A stretch of 32,000 nucleotides of DNA from an uncultured Chloroflexia bacterium (GCA_963718915.1 CAVRAI010000003.1:690001-722000); one strand, 5' to 3'. Counted from the stretch's first letter, positions 2,209 through 31,437 are shown. Notes: generated from the letters alone by a model not told the origin. Numbers and translations: made by a program.

Positions 2209-3285
2209 TCAGGCGGCGTCAGTCTTTGGCAGAAGCCGCATAAGCCACTCCGGCCTGCTCGCCAGATAGGCTCCCAGCGCCACGACCAGGCCGATAAACA
2301 AGCCAACGACGAGCGTTCCTTGCAGGTTTGCCTGCACCAGCCCCGCCAGCGCCGCCGTGATCTCGTGCGCTGGGCTTGCCGTCACTGCGGCGGGGATGTT
2401 GCCCAATACGATCTGCGCCACCAGCATCGCCACGAGGAAGAGCGCCGCCGTCACGCCTCCCAGCAGCAGCAGCGTTCGCCATCGGTTCGCCGCGAGCCAG
2501 AGCGCCAGTATCGCCAGTACGAGTGTCACGAGAGGCAGGATGACTTGCAGCGCGTCCAGAATGGAGACGATGCGCTGCGCCGTTCTGAGAGTATCGCTCT
2601 GAAACAGGGTGATGAGGCCAAAATCAGGGGCAAGTTGGACGCCCAGCGCTTGCGCAAGCTCCTGCCGCGCCTGTGCTGGGGTCTGAGCGGCAGAGAGGTC
2701 GGGAATCGTTACGCCGAATGGGATGATGCCGGGCGCCGCCTGCTGCAGACGGCTCAGCATCGCGGCGAGTATTGGCAGCAGGTCTAACGTCACCGTGCCA
2801 TTCGCCGTGCCGATTGTGGAGGTCTGGCCCCGCAGCAACGCGACCAGCCCGGCGTGACCCCGGCGCACCTGGGCCTGCCAGAGCGCCTGCCCCTGGTCGC
2901 TGTTGAGGAAATCCGCCGTGCGTGTCTGGACGAAGTCGTGGACGATGCGCTCCAGTGGGCCAGTGAGAAACCGACCGTCAATCGGCAGCGCGTTGGCCGT
3001 CCGGTTCTGGATGTCGAGCGCGGTGACGACCTGATCGGCGACATACTGGCTGACGCTGTTGATGACCTGCGGATCGCTCCCGAGTGGCGCGACCAATGCC
3101 ACGAAGTGATCCGTGTTCAGCATGGTCGATTCGACCCAGATCACCAGCGTGCTCGCCAGCACGCCGCTGCATGTCAGGATAACCAGTATGACCAATAGCC
3201 ACGTGGGCAATGTGCGACGACTGGCGCGGGGCGTGGGTGTAGGCGCCGCCTGACGTTCCGGCTGATGCTCGCTCGCACTGGCCAT
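2209..3285 (-). CDS. integral membrane protein of unknown function
   Basis: The ORF track gives 2209..3312. I prefer the ATG at 3285 (MASASEHQ...), which has GGAGGT (rc of 3291-3296) 5 nt upstream. One N-terminal TM helix, a large soluble middle region, and 3-4 C-terminal TM helices. It is the last gene of a same-strand trio with 3349..4053 and 4144..5076. Confidence 0.7.
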   Translation of the reverse strand: MASASEHQPERQAAPTPTPRASRRTLPTWLLVILVILTCSGVLASTLVIWVESTMLNTDHFVALVAPLGSDPQVINSVSQYVADQVVTALDIQNRTANALPIDGRFLTGPLERIVHDFVQTRTADFLNSDQGQALWQAQVRRGHAGLVALLRGQTSTIGTANGTVTLDLLPILAAMLSRLQQAAPGIIPFGVTIPDLSAAQTPAQARQELAQALGVQLAPDFGLITLFQSDTLRTAQRIVSILDALQVILPLVTLVLAILALWLAANRWRTLLLLGGVTAALFLVAMLVAQIVLGNIPAAVTASPAHEITAALAGLVQANLQGTLVVGLFIGLVVALGAYLASRPEWLMRLLPKTDAA

Positions 3286-3348
3286 GCCCCACCTCCGGCG
3301 ACGAGCCAGCAAAACGTCAGGCGCTCGCGGTGATTGCAGTTCTCGCGA

Positions 3349-4053
3349 TTACCGCTGTACGGCCGGATCCGTCCCGGCTGTGGGTGTCGACGGGAGCGCT
3401 ACGTTGGGCGCATAGGCGCTTGTGCGCTCGGGCCAGTTCGGCTCCAGATTGTATCGCTCGGGGAGGAGTATCTGAACCGCAGCGCCCGCTGCGGCAATCA
3501 ACAGGAAAACCAGTCCCCAGAACCACGAATCGCGGAGAAACGCGCCGACGACACCCCATTGTAGCGCTGCCAGCGGGATGCGGCCAATCGTCAGCAAAAT
3601 CCCCGTCAGGATCATGCTTGCTCCGAGCAGCGCGGTGAGCGCGATAACGAATAACTGTGGCACATTCAGCAGAACGACCAGAATGCAAAGCCCCAGCGCC
3701 ACGACAAGTCCGACGATGAAGAGTACGAAGCCCGACGTGACGCCCAACCCCGACAGGAATCCGGTGACGAGTTCGTAGGCAAAGGCCCCGGCCAGCACGA
3801 CGACTGCCCCATAGTAGAAGAAGTAGGCGATCACCGCGCAGAAGATGCCGACGACGAAGCCGAACACCCAGCCGCTGATGGTTGCCAGGAAGCCCCCGCC
3901 GAACAGCTCCTGAATTGCCTGGGCGGTTACCACAAATCCGCCGAAGAAGCCGATGATTGGTAGCACCAGGACGAAGACCCGGAAGCCAGCGAAGCAGAGC
4001 GCCAGCCCAATGAGGATCTGTAGCAGAGACGCAAAGATGATCTGGAAGAACAT
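3349..4053 (-). CDS. polytopic membrane protein (DUF4203/TMEM198-like by memory)
   Basis: I prefer the ATG at 4053 (MFFQIIFASLLQILIGLALCFAGFRVF...), with GGAGG (rc of 4063-4067) 9 nt upstream. About 7 G/F/V-rich TM helices. The competing same-strand frame 3317..4069 is Arg-rich and rejected. Confidence 0.75.
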   Translation of the reverse strand: MFFQIIFASLLQILIGLALCFAGFRVFVLVLPIIGFFGGFVVTAQAIQELFGGGFLATISGWVFGFVVGIFCAVIAYFFYYGAVVVLAGAFAYELVTGFLSGLGVTSGFVLFIVGLVVALGLCILVVLLNVPQLFVIALTALLGASMILTGILLTIGRIPLAALQWGVVGAFLRDSWFWGLVFLLIAAAGAAVQILLPERYNLEPNWPERTSAYAPNVALPSTPTAGTDPAVQR

Positions 4054-4143
4054 ACCTCTCACCCTCCATCTATGGCACATGCCGTCCGCGCATCTGGTAA
4101 TCAGCGGGCGGACGGCTCTCTTGTGGCTCCGCTAGAAGCCGCG

Positions 4144-13808: not shown

Positions 13809-14075
13809 GTTTTAGAAAGCACCAGGGACACGGGCTGGGCAGCGCGGGCGGTTCAAACCGCGCCTGTGGGGCCTGCGGCCACCAAGTCCGCCGTCGCGGA
13901 CTCCCAGACCGTGTCCCAACGCGCTCCCCGTTGGCGAGCGGTTCTGGGCAACCCGCGCAGGCGGGTGTCGTGGCGGAGCAGGTGCAGCAGGCGGAGCAGG
14001 CGCAGCAGGCGAGGCGCAGCAGGCGAGGCCCTTCAGGCGCGACTTCAGTCGCCAGCCGCCGTGGCGGTCCGTCGT
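13809..14075 (+). repeat. GC-rich MITE-like repeat, element A, copy 2
   Basis: See copy 1 (7293-7559) for the alignment. This copy carries its own internal short tandem arrays (gcagcaggcg-type units at about 13975-14030). Confidence 0.85.
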
Positions 14076-14078
14076 AAT

Positions 14079-15210
14079 TAACGTGAGTTCGGGATAACTA
14101 CAGGGTAACATGAACGGGCATCTCCTGCTCTTGGACGAGGGAGGGTTTCTTGGGTTGGCGGCAGTAGGCGACCAATCCGGCGAAGAGATGCACGAGGAAG
14201 TTGAGCGGGCTGCGGTGGCGGGTATGCTCAATCTGGCAGATGTTCTTGAGTTGGTCGTTGATGCTCTCAATGATCGCCCGTTTGCGGAGCAGGAGTTTGT
14301 CGGCCAGGGGCATGAGCACATGGCGCATATTTTTGCGCAGTTTGGTAATGAGGCGCAGGCGCTGAGTGAGCAAGAGCTGCTCAGCGAGCGCTGCTCAGCG
14401 AGCGCTGCTCAGCGAGCGCCGCCGAGATGTAGCCTTTGGTAGCCTTTGTCGGCGAAGAGGCGGCCGAAGAGGCGACCGAAGAGGCGGACCGAAGAGGCGG
14501 CCGAAGAGGCGATGCGTGCCACGCACCAAGCGTGGCACAGGCTGACGGTCATCGACGTTGCCGGGGGAAGACAAAACGCCAGCAGTTCGCCGCGGTCGTT
14601 GACCACCAGATGCAGTTTGAAGCCGAAGAACCAGCCCACCGAGGTCTTGCCCCGCCGGGCATCCACGCGAAAGACCCGATGCTGGTGGATGCGCGCCGGG
14701 TGACAGACCGCGAGGGCCGTCGAGTCAATGAAGCTGACACGAAGCTGACACCGGTGCAGGTTCCACATTGCGTGCGCAGGTAGACGGCGAGCGGAAGGAG
14801 GACTCGCGGCAGCAATTCGATGCAGCAATTCGATGCAGCGATTCGATGCAGCGATTGTAGCTCACGAGGTGCGGAAACTCCCGGCGCAGATGCACCTGCA
14901 CATACTCAGTATAGAACGCTTTGTATAGAACGCTTTGAAGGTGCGGTAGCCCGACTGCTGCAAGAGGATCGCGATGGTCATAATTTCACTGGGATGCAGC
15001 CGGGTCGCGCGTCGACGACGGCGCGTCCCCGAGACGAGCAACTCGCGCTCCCACCACGGCTCAAAGACCTGCCAGAACGCATCCACGGAGCAGTACAAGG
15101 CGTCCAGGTCGAGTATACTCATGACATGCCTCCATTCAGGGACTGACGGGGTGTCGTAAACCGCATCATATCTCTGTTGAAGGCATTTCGCTTATCCCGA
15201 ACTCACGTTA
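14079..15210 (-). mobile_element. IS982-family insertion sequence (about 1.13 kb) with perfect 19-bp terminal inverted repeats and a disrupted transposase
   Basis: IRs are taacgtgagttcgggataa (14079-14097) and its exact reverse complement (15192-15210). The element sits between element A copy 2 and element B copy 2. I see no convincing target-site duplication. Confidence 0.85.
14098..15122 (-). pseudogene. IS982-family transposase pseudogene, split into 3 ORFs
   Basis: Fragments are 14862..15122 ([25 protein letters not shown]), 14409..14828 ([16 protein letters not shown]...GKTSVGWFFGFKLHLVVNDRGELL...LFADKGY) and 14098..14373 ([52 protein letters not shown]). These match the IS982 transposase motifs as I remember them. 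The frame breaks coincide with the tandem duplications described in the findings. Confidence 0.85.
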
Positions 15211-15215
15211 TTTAG

Positions 15216-15283
15216 TAAAACGACATAAGGCCCCGGCGAATGGGGATGGAAATTCGCCGTAGCGTTCACGCTACGGCCTGCCT
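15216..15283 (+). repeat. hairpin-bearing repeat, element B, copy 2
   Basis: Same orientation as copy 1. Hairpin gccgtagcg-ttca-cgctacggc at 15256-15277. It starts 6 nt after the IS982 right end. Confidence 0.8.
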
Positions 15284-15504
15284 TCCGTATGACAACAGTC
15301 CAACCGGATGGAGTATCAGGAGGATAGCGCGACGATTTGCTCAGGCGCGGATGCTCATGTGGCTTTCTACAACTTTTGGCCCATGCGTCTGACGCGGTTG
15401 TATAGTCTCGTTAGGTTCTAGATGGTGTAGCGCGTAGCGTTGGATGGAGGTGAGCGCGAGAGTAGCGCATATCGCGATGGCGCAGTAGTAGGAGGTGAAC
15501 CGTT

Positions 15505-24198: not shown

Positions 24199-26550
24199 AT
24201 GACGAAGCCATTCAAGGGGACGATCAACGTCGACATCCGCGACTCGCAGCCCGACTGGGAACCCTTCGAGCCGCCCAAAGCGTCGGAGAGAGCGCCGAAT
24301 GTCCTCTACATCGTGCTGGATGATGTCGGGTTTTCTGCCATCGGTTGCTATGGCGGTCCGGTCGAGACGCCCAACATCGACCGCATCGCCAATAATGGCA
24401 TCCGCTACACCCAGTTCCACACCACGGCGCTCTGCTCGCCGACCCGCTCATGCCTGCTGACCGGGCGCAACCACACCCGCAACAGCATGGCCTGTATCAC
24501 CGAGGCGGCAATTGGCTTCCCCAACGCCAGCGGCACCATCCCGCCTGAAAATGGCATGCTCTCGGAGATTTTGGGCGAACAGGGCTGGAACACCTATATC
24601 GTTGGCAAGTGGCATCTCTGCCCGACCGATGAGATGAACCTCGCCTCCACCCGGCGCAACTGGCCCTCAGGCCGCGGCTTCGAGCGCTTCTATGGGTTTC
24701 TGGGCGCGGAGACGAACCAGTGGTATCCCGAACTGGTCTATGACAACCACCCAGTTGATCCGCCCATGACGCCGGAGGAGGGCTACCATTTCACCGAGGA
24801 CGTCACCAACAAGGCAATCGAGTTCATCCAGGACGCCAAGGCGGTCGCTCCCGACAAGCCGTTCTTCCTCTACTATGCCCCCGGCGCCTGCCACGCGCCG
24901 CATCAGGCGCCGCGCGAATGGATCGATAAATACAAGGGCCGCTTCGACATGGGCTACGAGGCCATGCGGACACAAACCCTCGCCCGCCAGAAAGAACTGG
25001 GCCTCATCCCGCAGGATACAGAACTGCCCCCCATCAACCCGATTGGCACGCCGCAGACGCGCACCGGGCCAGACGGCAAGCCGTTCCCGGAGACCGATTA
25101 CACGCGCCCGTGGGACTCGCTTTCAGCGGACGAGAAGCGGCTCTTCGCGCGGATGGCGGAAGTCTATGCCGGATTCCTCGCCCATGCCGACTATCACATC
25201 GGGCGGCTGCTCAGCTACCTGGAAGAGACCAACCAGTTGGAGAATACGCTGTTGATACTGGTCTCCGACAATGGCGCGAGTGGCGAGGGTGGGCCAAATG
25301 GCTCGGTGAACGAGAACAAACTGTTCAACGGTATTCCCGACGACATTGAAGCCAACCTGGCGATGCTGGATGACCTGGGCAGCCCGAAGACCTACAACCA
25401 TTATCCCAATGGCTGGGCAATGGCGTTCAACACTCCCTTCAAGATGTGGAAGCGCTACGAGTTCAATGGCGGCACCAGCGATCCGTGTATCGTTTCCTGG
25501 CCAGCGGGCATCAAGGTGAAAGGCCAGATCCGCGAGCAGTATCACCATGCCATCGATCTGGTTCCCACGGTCCTCGACGTGCTGGGAGTGGAGGCGCCGA
25601 CGACGATCAAGGGGCATACGCAGAGCCGTTTCGACGGCGTGAGTATGCGCTACAGCTTTGAGGATGCCAAGGCGCCGACCGCTCGGCCTACGCAGTTCTA
25701 CAGCATGCTGGGTTCGCGGGGCATCTGGCATGACGGCTGGAAGGCGATCACCACGCACCCCACCATTAGCGGCTGGAGCCACTTCAACGAGGATACCTGG
25801 GAGCTTTACCATACCGATGTCGACCGCTCGGAGGTCCACAATCTGGCGGCAGAGCAACCGGATAAGCTGCGCCAGTTGATCGGCGCGTGGTTCGCGGAGG
25901 CGGGCGCAAATGGCGCCTTCCCGCTGGACGACCGCTCGGCGCTAGAGATCTTCAATACGCCGCGCCCACAACTCACCAAACCCCAGAACCGCTATCGCTA
26001 CTATCCCGATACTGCTCTGGTGCCCGGTGTCCAGGCGGTCAATACGCGCAACCGCTCGTTCACCATCGGCGCCGTCGTGGACATTCCCGCCCCCGGCGCG
26101 CAGGGTGTGCTCTTCGCGTACGGGTCGCGCTTCGGTGGCCACGCGCTCTACGTCAAGGACAACCGGCTGCGCTATGTCAACAATTTCGTCGGCATCGAGG
26201 AGCAGAAGATCGTCGCCGATGTGGACCTGCCGACCGGCAACGACCTGATTCTCTCGGCGTCGTTCGACAAGGATGGCGAGGTGACGCCTGGGACGGCGAC
26301 GGGGATACTCTCGCTCTACATCGGGGACAAAAAGGTTGGTGAGGGGCGGATTAAGACACAGCCCGGCGACTTCGGCCTGGGGACTGGGGTGACCATTGGC
26401 CGGAGTGCGCGGCAGGTGGCCGACGACTACCCCGGTCAGCGGCCCTGGCGGTTTACTGGAGGCACGCTCAAGATGGTCGCGGTCGATGTGAGCGGCGAGC
26501 CGTATGTGGACCTCGAGCGCGCAGCCGTCGCCATGATTGCGCGTGAATAG
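24199..26550 (+). CDS. arylsulfatase (type I sulfatase, Cys-type formylglycine motif), large AtsA-like form
   Basis: PNVLYIVLDDVGFS, the signature TTALCSPTRSCLLTGRNH (C-x-P-x-R), GKWHLCP, LVSDNGAS, and a long C-terminal beta-rich extension. 783 aa. Confidence 0.93.
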   Translation: MTKPFKGTINVDIRDSQPDWEPFEPPKASERAPNVLYIVLDDVGFSAIGCYGGPVETPNIDRIANNGIRYTQFHTTALCSPTRSCLLTGRNHTRNSMACITEAAIGFPNASGTIPPENGMLSEILGEQGWNTYIVGKWHLCPTDEMNLASTRRNWPSGRGFERFYGFLGAETNQWYPELVYDNHPVDPPMTPEEGYHFTEDVTNKAIEFIQDAKAVAPDKPFFLYYAPGACHAPHQAPREWIDKYKGRFDMGYEAMRTQTLARQKELGLIPQDTELPPINPIGTPQTRTGPDGKPFPETDYTRPWDSLSADEKRLFARMAEVYAGFLAHADYHIGRLLSYLEETNQLENTLLILVSDNGASGEGGPNGSVNENKLFNGIPDDIEANLAMLDDLGSPKTYNHYPNGWAMAFNTPFKMWKRYEFNGGTSDPCIVSWPAGIKVKGQIREQYHHAIDLVPTVLDVLGVEAPTTIKGHTQSRFDGVSMRYSFEDAKAPTARPTQFYSMLGSRGIWHDGWKAITTHPTISGWSHFNEDTWELYHTDVDRSEVHNLAAEQPDKLRQLIGAWFAEAGANGAFPLDDRSALEIFNTPRPQLTKPQNRYRYYPDTALVPGVQAVNTRNRSFTIGAVVDIPAPGAQGVLFAYGSRFGGHALYVKDNRLRYVNNFVGIEEQKIVADVDLPTGNDLILSASFDKDGEVTPGTATGILSLYIGDKKVGEGRIKTQPGDFGLGTGVTIGRSARQVADDYPGQRPWRFTGGTLKMVAVDVSGEPYVDLERAAVAMIARE

Positions 26551-26593
26551 GCTTCACCAGCGCTCGAAAGCCTGAGTCAGCCGAAGTGATTGA

Positions 26594-26655
26594 AGGGAGC
26601 GGGAAGCAGTGGCGATACCTGAGATCGCCATGGCCGGGCCGCTCCCTCTTTCTGC
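26594..26655 (+). terminator. nested stem-loop after the sulfatase gene (possible terminator)
   Basis: Outer arms agggagcgg (26594-26602) and ccgctccct (26639-26647). Inner hairpin ggcgat-acctgag-atcgcc. Followed by ctttct. Confidence 0.3.
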
Positions 26656-26734
26656 GAGGCAACGACCTGGCGTGTGTGGGTAGCGTGTCTCGCCTGGCTA
26701 CGCCGTAAGTCGTAACTCGCAAGAGGATCAGGAT

Positions 26735-27529
26735 ATGCCTGCCAACGACATCTTTCATCAGTTGAACGAATTCGTGGTTGCGGCGCTTATGTTCCTCATT
26801 CTCATCGGCGCTGGTGAGGTCGGATACCTCCTGGCTCGACGCCGACGCGCGGGCAGGAAAAACGAGACGGCTGCCGAAACCCACGAGCACCTGAATGAGA
26901 TTCAGACGGCGATCTTTGCGGTGCTCGGACTCTTGCTCGCGTTCACATTCGCTATGGCTGTTTCACGCTTTGATGCGCGCAAGCAGGCGCTGGTGGACGA
27001 GACCGACGCGATTGGGACAGCCTACCTCCGCGTCCAGTTGCTCCCACCGGGGCAGCAGCCGGCGGCAGCGGCGGTCTTCCGCACCTATGTGGACGCCAGA
27101 TTAAATTCGGCGCGTCCCTACTGGTATCTGGATGCGCGGCTGAAAAACGAGACGAACGAGCTACAGCAGCAATTGTGGACGCAAGGCACAGATGCTGCGA
27201 ACCAGGATCCGCACGCAGTCACCACCAGCCTCTATATTCAGTCGCTGAATGACATGTTCGACGCCCAGAGCGCTCGGGATGCGTCCCGGCTGAACGAGCT
27301 TCCCACGAGCGCGATCTATCTGCTTCTCGTCATCTCTATTCTCTCAACGGGGGTGCTTGGATATCGGGCAGGGCTGGGAGGTAGACGGTCGATCGTTGGG
27401 GCGGTGCTTCTCGCGCTCGTCATCACGCTCGTCGTCGGGATCATTATCGACCTCGACCAGTCCTATCAGGGTCTTATTACGATCAGCCAGCAGGCCCTGA
27501 TCCAGCTCAGACAGAGCATGGGGCCATAA
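26735..27529 (+). CDS. DUF4239-type membrane protein
   Basis: IQTAIFAVLGLLLAFTFAMAVSRFDARKQALVDETDAIGTAYLRVQLLP is the family core as I remember it. Two further C-terminal TM helices are present. Confidence 0.75.
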   Translation: MPANDIFHQLNEFVVAALMFLILIGAGEVGYLLARRRRAGRKNETAAETHEHLNEIQTAIFAVLGLLLAFTFAMAVSRFDARKQALVDETDAIGTAYLRVQLLPPGQQPAAAAVFRTYVDARLNSARPYWYLDARLKNETNELQQQLWTQGTDAANQDPHAVTTSLYIQSLNDMFDAQSARDASRLNELPTSAIYLLLVISILSTGVLGYRAGLGGRRSIVGAVLLALVITLVVGIIIDLDQSYQGLITISQQALIQLRQSMGP

Positions 27530-27636
27530 GGGGCCATAATTCAGCTCAATTGCAAGTGTACGGTAGCGAGGTATGCGCATCCAATCCAGACAAACGCATG
27601 ACCTAGCATGACCTATCCCAGAACAGGAGCGTCGCC

Positions 27637-28464
27637 ATGAACAATGATCCCCATGCAAACGGCCACATACAACCACCATCGGTCTCGCCAGCCGAGACGA
27701 CCAGAGCCAGCCAATCGGGCGACGACCGATTCGACACTACCGCGGCGTTGCTGCGTCTGCTCATGGGTGGCGCGCTCCTGGGGACGCGGGAGCTACGGGT
27801 GCGGCTGGAGCGATGGCAGCAGACCATCCCCAATCCCGCCTCGAGCCAGGCAGTGGCGCCACGAACCGCCTCCCCATCTGACCAGCTCCGTTACACACTC
27901 ATGGGGATGATGTTTGAAACGGAGTCGCGCATGCGGCGGAGATTCTCCACCATGAGGAGGCGTTTCGCACGAGTCTCGCACGAGGCCAATACCTTCTATA
28001 CAACCGTCATGTCGGACATGCGTTATACTCCGCTCGATCCGCTACGCGCGCGTTTCGAAGAAATGATCTACCGCGCGACGATGGCGGTGGATCGGTGGGC
28101 GGATCGGGGACGGATGGAGGAGCAACAAAGCCGCTCCATGGCGCAGGAGGCTGTGGTGAGCGTGATTGATGAACTGCTCGACTACATGGCGCGGAATCCT
28201 GAGGTTCGCCATTTGATCGAGCAGCAGGGTATGAGCATGGCTGAAACCGCCGTGGATGAGGTGCGCGAGCGGACGGCGACGGCGGATATGTGGATCGAGC
28301 GGATTGCGCGGAGCCTGCTCCACCGCCCGGCGAGCGAGAACCCCGCGCCATCGGCGTCATCGGCGTCATCGGCGTCATCGGTGGCTATCTCATCGCCAGG
28401 GACAACAAGCCCGGTAGCGACGACGGTGGAGACGGATACGTCCCTCACCCGGCGATCCAGGTGA
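27637..28464 (+). CDS. hypothetical protein (helical, R/E/M-rich), upstream partner of the RDD gene
   Basis: AGGAG lies 7 nt upstream of the ATG. 275 aa. It contains an in-frame 9-bp x~4 array (28349-28384) encoding SASSASSASS. Its stop lies inside the SD-like AGGTGA that precedes the next gene. Confidence 0.6.
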   Translation: MNNDPHANGHIQPPSVSPAETTRASQSGDDRFDTTAALLRLLMGGALLGTRELRVRLERWQQTIPNPASSQAVAPRTASPSDQLRYTLMGMMFETESRMRRRFSTMRRRFARVSHEANTFYTTVMSDMRYTPLDPLRARFEEMIYRATMAVDRWADRGRMEEQQSRSMAQEAVVSVIDELLDYMARNPEVRHLIEQQGMSMAETAVDEVRERTATADMWIERIARSLLHRPASENPAPSASSASSASSVAISSPGTTSPVATTVETDTSLTRRSR

Positions 28465-28471
28465 TACCGCT

Positions 28472-29017
28472 ATGGACAGGATGACGATTCACAAGTCACA
28501 CACACACACACACACACATGCGCACGCGGGCTTTATTAGCCGCGCCATTGCCTTTGTACTCGACATTGTCGTGATGAGCGTGGCCGTGCTGGCGGCTGTC
28601 GCGCTCTTGCAGGCGCTGCTGGGCTTCTTCACCCTGTATGGGTTGGTCGGGCAACGGGTTGTCCAGTCCAGCCCGTTCCGCGATATCGTCGTCGTGGTGA
28701 TCGCGCTCATCGGCGTCGGAGTGGCCATTGGCTATCCGGTCTTCTTCTGGGTGTTGCTTGGCCAGACCCCAGGCAAGTTACTCATGGGCGTGCGCATCTC
28801 GCGGACGAACGGCCAACCGCTGACGGTCAGGCGCGCGCTGCTGCGCTACCTGGGGTACTGGCTCTCGGCGATACCGCTCGGCCTGGGGTTCTTCTGGGTG
28901 CTGGTGGACGATCACCGCCAGTGCTGGCACGATAAGCTCGCCGACACCGTTGTGATCTATGACTCGCGGTCGCCTGTCCCGCTCCCCTCAGCATCCGCGC
29001 CGCGCTCTGCTCTATAG
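28472..29017 (+). CDS. RDD-family membrane protein with an N-terminal His/Thr tail encoded by (CA)11
   Basis: RDD hallmarks: FISRAIAFVLDIVV (first Arg), three TM helices, GKLLMGVRISR, and WHDKLADTVVIY (final Asp). No in-frame start exists downstream of the CA tract that would keep the first conserved Arg, so the tract is coding. Confidence 0.85.
   Translation: MDRMTIHKSHTHTHTHAHAGFISRAIAFVLDIVVMSVAVLAAVALLQALLGFFTLYGLVGQRVVQSSPFRDIVVVVIALIGVGVAIGYPVFFWVLLGQTPGKLLMGVRISRTNGQPLTVRRALLRYLGYWLSAIPLGLGFFWVLVDDHRQCWHDKLADTVVIYDSRSPVPLPSASAPRSAL
28497..28518. repeat. (CA)11 dinucleotide microsatellite inside the RDD gene
   Basis: cacacacacacacacacacaca read directly from the sequence. It is translated as HTHTHTH. 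Confidence 0.95.
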
Positions 29018-29716
29018 TTGCGCGTCCTCCGATGCCTCCGGTAAGTCCGTCTGTGCCAGGCTCTGGAAATCTGCGACCGACATCCGAAGATAGACGGCGC
29101 TAGAATCGGCATCGTCCACATCTTCCATAGGGATGAAGTGCTGGTGTTTCAGGAGATGTCCAGAGGTTACCACGATACCGCGCAGTTTCCCCTCGTCCGT
29201 CACGCTCAACTCGTGGACATTGCCGACATGACTCCCGTCACCCGCCAGAACCTTGGTGCCTTTCGTGATCCCGAACTCGTTTTCAGAGAGGCTGCTTTGT
29301 TCCGTGACAACGCTGGAGGTCATATCGACATAGCCGATAAAGGGGCCACTGCCGGGGGACCACTCCTGCCCTACCGGGGTTGAACTCCCCAGGCCAGGTG
29401 TGGAGAGCGGCATCATACCACGGCTGGCGCCATCGTAATCCTCCATGCCCGGAGAGGCGCTATTGCTGACAAACTTCTCGACGAAGTACTGCGGAAGCTG
29501 GAGGAACTGCTCTTCGGCGATGGCCAGGTGGATCGTTTCATCGGCATCCACCCGCTCGACCTTGTCTACTGGCACAGTCAAATCGCTGCCCATCCACTGC
29601 GTATGCACCACGAACGAATCCAGCATCCCTTTGCTGGTATCCACAATCAGCTTGCTGACTTTGCCCGCCGTTTTCCCTTCCTGTGTCAGAACATGGGCGC
29701 CCAGCTCGATATGCAT
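29012..29716 (-). CDS. tandem PRC-barrel domain protein
   Basis: ATG at 29716 with GGAGG (rc of 29722-29726) 5 nt upstream; the track start is 29773. Two PRC-barrel-like modules: GAHVLTQEGKTAGKVSKLIVDTSKGMLDSFVV...VPVDKVERVD and GTKVLAGDGSHVGNVHELSVTDEGKLRGIVVTSG...IPMEDVDD. Confidence 0.8.
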   Translation of the reverse strand: MHIELGAHVLTQEGKTAGKVSKLIVDTSKGMLDSFVVHTQWMGSDLTVPVDKVERVDADETIHLAIAEEQFLQLPQYFVEKFVSNSASPGMEDYDGASRGMMPLSTPGLGSSTPVGQEWSPGSGPFIGYVDMTSSVVTEQSSLSENEFGITKGTKVLAGDGSHVGNVHELSVTDEGKLRGIVVTSGHLLKHQHFIPMEDVDDADSSAVYLRMSVADFQSLAQTDLPEASEDAQL

Positions 29717-30098
29717 ATCTGCCTCCTCAGCAATCGCTCTTCTGTCTCTGTCATTGTGTCCCCAGTGCAGCATAGAGGTGAGGATTGGCCGTTGTCGCCG
29801 CGCGCAGTGGGTGTTTACGGGGTTAGTCCAGCGCCTGCCTCAAGAGCGAGCGTAGACCTTGCCTTCGGGTGAGTAGTGGCTTTCGTGGCTGCTGCGTTTT
29901 GGCTCCAATGCGCTTGCCTGGCGACTCTTTCAACGCGAAATATAGCATGCGAGGGAGAATATCACCTTAATGACTGAGTAGAATCGTTGCTTTAAAGATG
30001 CTATACTTGCTCATCAGTCGGCAGGCAGCCATGCCGAACGATTCGATCAGGATCTCTTCGGGAGTATTCTGAACTTTGGCGCAACATCATCAAGGTAT

Positions 30099-30779
30099 GT
30101 GGCGCGCCGCGCACTGTTGGCCAGCATGAGAAGAGGGTTATTGAGTTCGGCCATGGAAACAAAGTATCGTATCATTTCTACTCAGCAGGTTTCTTCCTAC
30201 AGACAACAACTCACAGCACGCGGCATTCGAGTTACCATTGGGTTTCATGCGACCTCTCGGAGTAAAGTTGAATCTATTCTGGAGAATGGCTTTGCGCCAA
30301 GTCGCAATGGGTATGACTGGCTTGGTGATGGCGCATATTTCTGGGAAAATGATCTGGACCGCGCGGCACATTGGGCTAGGAGGCACTTCCGTTCGGAGCG
30401 TGCGGTCATAGGAGTATTGCTGCGTCTTACTGGCTGTATGGACCTTCAGACACAGCGCAATTACTGGTTGAAGACGCTTCAGGCTGAATACATCGAGATT
30501 CGGAACCTGCACAGGCGAAAAAGGATCAAATTGCCCAGGCAGACCCAGGGAGCGAATAGACTCGATTGCCTGGTTTTCAACAGTGCGATTGAACATATGG
30601 CGGAGCGAGGCATTCTTGTTCAATCAGTACGCGAGATGTTTATCGAGGGCAAACCAGCCTGGTGGCGATCCGCGATCCGTACACAATCACATATACAGGT
30701 GCCATTCGGGATGATAGCGTCATTGAGGCAGTCTGGATACTTGAGACACCAGAAGAATTCGCGGACGCTGATCGCATAG
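30099..30779 (+). CDS. hypothetical protein in the low-G+C islet; possible ADP-ribosyltransferase-fold (H-Y-E-like, DUF3990-like) enzyme; start and 3' end uncertain
   Basis: IGFHATSRSKVESILENGF...WLGDGAYFWENDLDRAAHWA resembles the His-strand and G-x-G-x-Y-F strand of PARP-type ART folds. This is a recollection, not a search result. Alternative starts are at 30126 and 30153. A different frame gives a more protein-like C-terminus (see findings). Confidence 0.5.
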   Translation: MARRALLASMRRGLLSSAMETKYRIISTQQVSSYRQQLTARGIRVTIGFHATSRSKVESILENGFAPSRNGYDWLGDGAYFWENDLDRAAHWARRHFRSERAVIGVLLRLTGCMDLQTQRNYWLKTLQAEYIEIRNLHRRKRIKLPRQTQGANRLDCLVFNSAIEHMAERGILVQSVREMFIEGKPAWWRSAIRTQSHIQVPFGMIASLRQSGYLRHQKNSRTLIA

Positions 30780-30828: not shown

Positions 30829-31437
30829 TTAATTCCCTGTAGTTCCTGATTGCTGGAGCAACTTCCTCAAGACCGCATGCGCCTCCGCAAGTTGGCGTTT
30901 TCTTTCTTGCTCCATCCACTGACTTAGCCGGGAATCAGGCGAGCTGAAGCCATGGGGCAATTTCCCACGAAGATTCTTCTGGAAGTCTCGATCAAGTTTT
31001 TGGAGCGTCGCCGCTAAATCCTTGATTGCCGCAAGCCCCTCGAACAAGGAACCTCCCCACTGAGCCAAAGGCGCAGGTTCGTCATGAGCAACACATGCCA
31101 CAAAACGGACACGAGCCTCTTCAAGCAACATAAAGGCTTGCTGGCTCTCACGAGACGCCGATATATACAGCATAACCTGTGGCGCGGACAACAGATCCGC
31201 GGCGTACTTGCTAATCGGGGGTTCCCCATTGGCGCCAGGAGCAGTTGGACCAGAAGCGTCTGTGGTCATCGCACGAGGATGAGGCGCATCATCATGCGCA
31301 GGGCCACCATCCTCTGCCGGACCTGTAAGCTCGGATGAATAATCGGGGTAGGTATTTACCGTAGTATTGGAGGCGACAGCGTGTATACGGCCATCTGATG
31401 GTTGAGAGGCCAAATGACCTCGGGTTCTTCGGGCCAT
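30829..31437 (-). CDS. hypothetical protein (disordered P/A/G/T-rich N-terminal half, structured C-terminal half)
   Basis: ATG at 31437 with GAAGGAG upstream. 202 aa. Convergent with 30099..30779 across a short gap. No family recognised. Confidence 0.5.
   Translation of the reverse strand: MARRTRGHLASQPSDGRIHAVASNTTVNTYPDYSSELTGPAEDGGPAHDDAPHPRAMTTDASGPTAPGANGEPPISKYAADLLSAPQVMLYISASRESQQAFMLLEEARVRFVACVAHDEPAPLAQWGGSLFEGLAAIKDLAATLQKLDRDFQKNLRGKLPHGFSSPDSRLSQWMEQERKRQLAEAHAVLRKLLQQSGTTGN

Follow-up and report, generated by a model that had tools for sequence, protein, structure and literature searches.

In the opa genes of Neisseria (CTCTT pentamer in the leader-peptide codons) and in the tetranucleotide loci of Haemophilus influenzae, a translated 5′ repeat whose unit is not a multiple of three (non-3n) acts as a frameshift switch; these are conserved, multi-locus systems with measured switching rates. 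Tracts of (CA)n/(GT)n in E. coli, by what Levinson and Gutman are said to have reported in 1987, often frameshift by whole units and are partly restrained by mismatch repair. In Helicobacter pylori, the membrane-protein gene oipA (also sabA, hopZ and babB) has among its first codons a dinucleotide repeat that is translated and whose unit number sets the frame; in oipA this is a CT repeat in the signal-peptide codons, for which 386 ON, 150 OFF and 29 repeat patterns are reported (PMC10564699). General statements on SSR frameshift switches are available (PMC3315296, PMC2651432). SSR instability grows with run length and drops with interruptions (PMC7015867). Long mono- and dinucleotide SSRs are generally counter-selected and are tolerated at protein termini (PMC3315296); Lin and Kussell (2012; PMC3315296) give biophysical reasons for the preferential tolerance of SSRs and indels at N- and C-termini. 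Alternating R-Y runs and SSRs are suppressed in prokaryotes, R-Y runs strongly so in Chloroflexi and in coding regions especially (PMC4060949). No account of SSR phase variation in Chloroflexi turned up in a literature search.

The window, the whole stretch of 32,000 nucleotides analysed here (G+C content 59.8%), comes from a soil-dwelling member of the Ktedonobacterales (Chloroflexota). It contains a perfect (CA)11 tract in the first codons of a gene for an RDD-family membrane protein (Table 1). The tract is a coding microsatellite with the potential for slipped-strand frameshifts, in a host unusual for this kind of repeat. As in oipA, the dinucleotide repeat is translated, lies at the very start of a membrane-protein gene and sets the frame by its unit number, with out-of-frame numbers truncating the protein (here by allele simulation); as in opa and the H. 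influenzae loci, the repeat is non-3n and near the 5′ end. Practically every strain of H. pylori, a host-restricted pathogen that has many SSR loci, carries its repeat, ON/OFF alleles are numerous and the product is a surface adhesin, whereas the tract described here is found in one lineage of a soil bacterium and in an inner-membrane protein; no sign of the multi-locus, conserved setting of the Neisseria and H. influenzae repeats was found for it. Ordinary coding microsatellites at protein termini offer a second comparison, as the N-terminal tail of the RDD protein is 10–21 aa long, depending on the orthologue, and the C-terminus shows repeat variation too, but a 22-bp perfect run is far above the counter-selection limit of ~10 bp (PMC3315296) and would be an extreme case. 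The repeat type is that of the E. coli (CA)n/(GT)n tracts, for which longer, uninterrupted tracts are less stable (in general terms, PMC7015867), although those were engineered reporters. The encoded peptide resembles the (H-x)n segments of CDF and ZIP proteins in its alternating His-x pattern and in belonging to a probably cytoplasmic segment of a small membrane protein; the RDD protein has no homology to CDF or ZIP, however, and the nearest relatives can dispense with the segment.

Table 1 Coordinates of the features discussed (positions in the window unless a contig is named).
Feature	Position	Strand	Remarks
Perfect (CA)11 microsatellite	28497–28518	+	Codons 9–16 of RDD gene; TRF and raw sequence
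Alternating pyrimidine-purine run, 32 bp, unbroken	28497–28528	.	(CA)11 then TGCGCACGCG
RDD-family membrane-protein gene, 181 aa	28472–29017	+	Pfam PF06271, E 4e-25; three hydrophobic segments
True start ATG (M-D-R...)	28472–28474	+	Orthologues have ATG GAY ARR at aligned position
Second in-frame ATG	28481–28483	+	Unconserved; T, I or L in several orthologues
Shine-Dalgarno-like AGGTGAT	28458–28464	+	7 nt ahead of ATG 28472
Shifted frame, n = 3k (6, 9, 12, 15)	28518–28574	+	From ATG 28518 reads MRTRALLAAPLPLYSTLS; TGA 28572–28574
TAG ending other shifted frame, n = 3k+1 (7, 10, 13, 16)	28537–28539	+	...TCARGLY*
5-bp tandem duplication GCTCT/GCTCT	29004–29013	+	Shifts frame into TAG 29015–29017 (alignment)
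Convergent PRC-barrel/DUF2171 gene	29012–29773	-	3′ neighbour of RDD gene
Upstream partner gene, 275 aa	27637–28464	+	Ends 7 nt from RDD start
Partner gene in relatives	L017:1490–2290; L038:9067–9996; L039:9181–9993; L042:9081–9866		Also upstream ORF in L010
Tandem repeat, period 18/9	13972–14011		Near 14 kb
Tandem repeat, period 14	13998–14039		Near 14 kb
Tandem repeat, period 14, x3.1	14376–14419		Near 14 kb; 100%
Tandem repeat, period 12, x4.8	14453–14511		Near 14 kb
Tandem repeat, period 13, x3.7	14809–14856		Near 14 kb
Tandem repeat, period 14, x2.1	14909–14937		Near 14 kb

The tract and its reading frame

TRF reports the tract with period 2, 11.0 copies and 100% matches. No other perfect SSR of comparable length with a non-triplet unit occurs in the 32-kb window, where the next longest are (GC)5, A7 and T7, and a CA run of 12 nt appeared in none of 100 dinucleotide-preserving shuffles of the window; given the suppression of SSRs and R-Y runs in prokaryotes and Chloroflexi, (CA)11 is a genuine outlier. 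The codons across it (TCA CAC ACA CAC ACA CAC ACA CAT) read S-H-T-H-T-H-T-H. The alternating pyrimidine-purine run of which it forms the larger part, 32 bp in the window versus 14–26 bp in relatives, is a by-product of His (CAY) and Thr/Ala (RCR) codons and is in principle Z-DNA-prone.

The product of the gene matches PF06271 with 89.1 bits (cut-off 24.1) over residues 19–157, corresponding to profile positions 2–136 of 137, and the RDD domain thus begins immediately past the CA tract. Across 37 aligned orthologues R24 (the Arg of FISRAIAF), D31, D146 and D154 never vary, and the hydropathy plot has three hydrophobic blocks, in keeping with the conserved Arg/Asp and approximately three transmembrane segments of the RDD family. 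A loop with six K/R and no D/E (residues 99–126) points to a cytoplasmic (N-in) N-terminal tail. All named members among the ~180 homologues are from Ktedonobacterales (Chloroflexota), represented by soil metagenomes and MAGs. The dN/dS of 0.08–0.17 for the core of the gene is that of a functional gene under purifying selection, not of a decaying one.

Between the upstream stop and G20 the only in-frame starts are ATG 28472 and ATG 28481. Most of the 37 aligned orthologues start with M-D/E/N-K/R at the position of the former, while the Met encoded by the latter is unconserved and it is therefore not the start. The start fixed by the orthologues and the invariant R24 bear out the proposal of an earlier, sequence-only reading that the tract is translated (S-HTHTHTH) and lies between the true start and the conserved Arg. 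A start downstream of the tract, which would leave the repeat in the 5′ UTR, was rejected: orthologues begin with ATG GAY ARR, and no start is available between tract and domain. A His/Thr leader peptide (attenuator) was likewise rejected, as the peptide runs in frame into the RDD domain and orthologues show it to be the protein's own tail. Two minus-strand ORFs spanning the tract (28489–28728 and 28496–28654) are unsupported and antisense to a conserved gene.

The AGGTGAT ahead of the start, which we take to pair with the 3′ end of the 16S rRNA, overlaps the stop codon of the preceding gene (TGA 28462–28464), making translational coupling likely; CCAGGTRA is kept in most close relatives (CCAGGCGA in contig L004). 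From this arrangement, the RDD gene and the upstream 275-aa gene are probably co-transcribed and translationally coupled. An Rfam search of the window gave zero matches, and a promoter and terminator scan around the operon gave nothing beyond shuffle expectation.

Alleles with 5–17 CA units were simulated in silico. As each unit is 2 nt, the frame is kept only by changes of three units (6 nt), and full-length RDD protein was obtained only with n = 5, 8, 11, 14 and 17; all other unit numbers gave peptides of 19–36 aa, with no RDD-frame start upstream of G20. Alleles with n = 3k end in ...HMRTRALLAAPLPLYSTLS*. The frame from the out-of-frame ATG at 28518 has 18 codons before its TGA, in agreement with the ~20 codons given in the sequence-only reading, whose statement that gain or loss of one unit shifts the frame also holds: changes of one or two units destroy it, and no alternative start is present. 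With so few unit numbers in frame and no rescue start, the tract is built like an ON/OFF switch. It toggles in silico between full-length and truncated products and, as expected of a contingency locus, is non-3n, uninterrupted and inside the 5′ coding region. The 3′ neighbour is convergent, making the RDD gene the last in its unit, so a frameshift in it would have no polar effect downstream.

The tract in related lineages

Besides the RDD protein itself, its 90% protein cluster contains P0121 and P0122 only, both 95% identical to it and missing exactly the six residues HTHTHT. Their contigs (L016 and L017) are 92–94.7% identical to the window over 1–2.9 kb, rising to 97.5–97.7% in a 435-nt core of the gene. 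L017 has the same gene order as the window (Bestrophin-like, hypothetical, RDD) and the 1-kb L016 contig shows the adjacent upstream gene only. Both read ATT CAC ACG TCR CAT GCG CAC where the window has ATT CAC AAG TCA (CAC ACA)3 CAT GCG CAC, i.e. (CA)2 versus (CA)11, a clean in-frame difference of nine units (18 bp) with identical junctions. Eleven versus two units within ~2.5% divergence shows that tract length changes fast. In a neighbour-joining tree the window is sister to L016 plus L017, which is compatible with either expansion in the window or collapse in the sisters; whichever the polarity, the long perfect tract is, in the sequences compared, confined to a lineage less than ~2.5% diverged in the RDD gene.

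The wider comparison drew on GTDB genomes and JGI metagenomes for 26 orthologous loci, with 16 distinct tail sequences. All 26 are in frame from the same ATG, and their longest perfect dinucleotide run has three units. The tract is not maintained across related strains, with (CA)2 in the nearest relatives and at most three units in orthologues; orthologues neither start downstream of it nor conserve its length, two points on which the sequence-only reading had made its switch depend. No out-of-frame (OFF) allele was found among the 26 loci and database proteins, and searches of JGI metagenomes with exact or IUPAC DNA patterns (tract plus downstream flank) gave no same-lineage alleles; (CA)11 is carried by one contig only. 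The three alleles of the subclade are all in frame, which fits selection for function, the chance expectation being ~1 in 3 per comparison.

Across orthologues the tail (10–21 aa) is composed of several kinds of His-x(-x) repeat; in the window it contains HTHTHTHAH, by its pattern a putative metal-binding segment. In the next clade (84–90% protein identity) tails of 16–21 aa carry imperfect His-x(-x) repeats (HSHTHTHAH, SSAHSHTHTHAH, HASHASHAH, HASHPSHASHAH, HAHTTHAH, HAHARTH) encoded by mixed CAC/CAT and ACR/GCR/TCR codons, and in orthologues of ≤80% identity the whole His-x segment is absent. H18, ahead of AGF, is conserved in most orthologues.

In ~155 kb of non-redundant lineage DNA, including 32 kb of its own genome, dinucleotide runs of more than five units are absent apart from (CA)11: there are 75 runs of four units, a few of five, none of 6–10 and one of 11, supporting the earlier remark that such a length is unusual for a high-G+C, free-living lineage. 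The same DNA contains one homopolymer of at least 8 nt and no tetra- or pentanucleotide arrays.

Explanations for the tract

We favour, with a probability of about 0.65, the reading that slippage gave rise to (CA)11 only recently and in this lineage alone, as an incidental coding microsatellite within a cytoplasmic tail that is dispensable and accepts indels. Since the closest relatives lack the tract, it looks like a recent by-product of slippage and not an evolved switch. ACA accounts for 16% of Thr codons in the other ORFs of the window, and is used for 3/3 Thr inside the tract and 0/6 elsewhere in the RDD gene; a minor codon that the gene uses for Thr only inside the tract suggests that perfection of the repeat is mutational (slippage, homogenisation) and not a matter of codon choice. 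Alternation of His (CAY) with purine-ending Thr/Ala (RCR) codons gives alternating pyrimidine-purine, CA/CG-rich DNA, and the His-x tail would thus be a natural proto-microsatellite. In the proposed mechanism, the RDD tail of this clade (H-A/T/S; CAY plus ACR/GCR) would have provided an imperfect, CA/CG-rich alternating tract to start from, and replication slippage in this proto-repeat would have produced perfect (CA)11 in the window lineage alone; as the tail tolerates indels, slippage products would survive there. The current allele, translated from ATG 28472 as HTHTHTH, is ON, while a change of one or two units would create a null allele, making the site a reversible frameshift hotspot. The tract is probably hypermutable, throwing off null alleles, but this mutability would be incidental and the ON/OFF behaviour an unselected side effect.

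The sequence-only reading saw in the tract a candidate slipped-strand ON/OFF switch; that it is a genuine contingency locus is unlikely on the comparisons. The anatomy is right for it: a perfect non-3n SSR lies within the first 16 codons, both shifted frames end quickly with no rescue start, switching the last gene of a unit carries no polar cost, and the CT repeat in the signal-peptide codons of oipA is used likewise (PMC10564699). Tract length also differs between sister lineages and is far beyond the lineage background. The distribution is wrong, however, as the sisters have (CA)2, all 26 orthologous loci lack a perfect tract and no OFF allele was seen among them or in database proteins, and there is no second long SSR within the ~155 kb of lineage DNA. 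Steady purifying selection on the gene (dN/dS 0.08–0.17) also speaks against switching, as does the nature of the product, an inner-membrane protein with a probably cytoplasmic tail and not a surface antigen or restriction-modification system, and that of the host, a free-living soil bacterium, when N-terminal SSR excess is reported mainly from certain pathogens (PMC3315296). Contingency loci are often strain-specific, and absence from the sisters may be compatible with a recently recruited switch; phase variation by a newborn, functional switch, recruited within the last ~2% divergence by a free-living soil bacterium of the Chloroflexota and hedging RDD expression, nevertheless seems a long shot. 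Hedging against a phage or toxin using the RDD protein would be one, speculative, example, and an action of the 32-bp pyrimidine-purine run through supercoil-dependent Z-DNA on transcription of the last gene of the operon is more speculative still. Should the tract in fact switch, it would add a documented example, of which there are few, of SSR ON/OFF variation among free-living soil bacteria of high G+C, in a phylum not known to have any, and would show a contingency locus being born from a low-complexity peptide tail outside host-associated pathogens.

Selection could also act on the peptide, with the number of His-Thr pairs in a putative metal- or proton-binding tail tuning RDD activity and frameshifts being waste. 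Histidine-rich loops are found in CDF metal transporters, the clade of 84–90% identity retains alternating His-x in its proteins despite differing codons and lengths, and every length variant observed is in frame; the one RDD protein characterised so far works as a Na+(Li+,K+)/H+ antiporter (PMC5996927). We nonetheless regard such tuning as quite improbable, as the nearest relatives and all more distant orthologues do without the extra HTHTHT, and selection on the peptide would need neither a perfect CA tract nor the rare ACA codon. An effect on the mRNA, with an unstructured CA spacer past the start keeping the ribosome-binding site open and raising translation, appears highly improbable. The predicted unpaired probability of the AUG does rise from 0.09 with (CA)2 to 0.40 with (CA)8 or more, and downstream CA repeats enhance translation in E. 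coli according to a passage in PMC9031893 citing Martin-Farmer & Janssen 1999, but the value is 0.34 with an equally long synonymous spacer that has no repeat, so the predicted accessibility effect is not CA-specific. Predicted SD accessibility is unchanged, the gene is probably translationally coupled to one ending 7 nt away, and relatives cope without the tract. An assembly or sequencing artefact, or a wrong unit count in the consensus, has the least claim of all and can almost be dismissed: related large contigs are long-read metagenome assemblies, in which repeat counts are possibly slightly off, yet on both sides the sequence is colinear, base by base, with that of the sister strains, the additional DNA measures exactly 18 bp, is in frame and lies where relatives also carry His-x codons, and known sequencing-error modes do not insert nine perfect dinucleotide units.

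Under the favoured slippage reading, the locus would be an example of His-x codon runs seeding dinucleotide microsatellites. Other assemblies of the species might then show the RDD gene as apparently frameshifted or 'pseudogenised', and the tract could serve as a natural marker for strain typing or for measurement of slippage or mismatch repair in Ktedonobacterales.

The 3′ end of the gene and its surroundings

The sequence-only reading had taken the tract for the only non-3n repeat inside an apparently intact gene. As the sole long non-triplet SSR in the window it keeps that distinction, but the gene is not fully intact: the GCTCT duplication removes a C-terminal tail of ~30 aa present in the next-closest clade. 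Deleting one GCTCT copy restores the conserved ...PPVSPSVPGSGNLRPTSEDRRR* with a stop at 29101–29103 (29011–29103). From the alignment, (GCTCT)2 may be a second slippage-type event in the RDD gene; among relatives, the C-terminal tail differs in numbers of SA, ST and PQASQA repeats. In L016 and L017, homology ends precisely where the duplication lies (CGCTCTAT/). In relatives, the restored C-terminal tail overlaps, in antisense, the last 110–128 nt of the convergent PRC-barrel gene.

The 275-aa protein encoded upstream belongs to no family of Pfam or NCBIfam; its one match, to PCRF (E 0.055), is below threshold. The pair that its gene forms with the RDD gene is found across Ktedonobacterales, with partners of ~260–310 aa usually 4–8 nt apart, and on this conservation the two are a two-gene module. 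A similar ORF (...TAVDEVRG...) is found ahead of an RDD homologue in an actinobacterial MAG. In the window the upstream gene contains a nonamer (GCGTCATCG) x4.1 (28345–28381), encoding SASSASSAS in its C-terminal tail, 90 nt ahead of the RDD start; this is a second low-complexity tail with an in-frame repeat. The order sulfatase, Bestrophin-like, hypothetical, RDD and convergent PRC-barrel is common to the close clade (window 24199–29773, compared with contigs L039 and L044); more distant Ktedonobacterales have DUF2252, DUF1269, hypothetical and RDD instead.

Dense, unrelated short tandem repeats are present at ~13970–14940 of the window, partly in a minus-strand ORF (13812–14321) and mostly in 14322–15504, a stretch with no ORF of at least 150 aa (Table 1). 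In L044, a related Ktedonobacterales contig, an 8-bp unit (TCGCGTCA) is repeated seven times (3220–3275) just 3′ of a response-regulator gene; this non-3n repeat is apparently intergenic. Three ORFs of the window (3317–4069, 30099–30779 and 30829–31437) have a third-position G+C of 0.44–0.55, compared with 0.62–0.81 in the others, and may be recently acquired DNA or non-coding.
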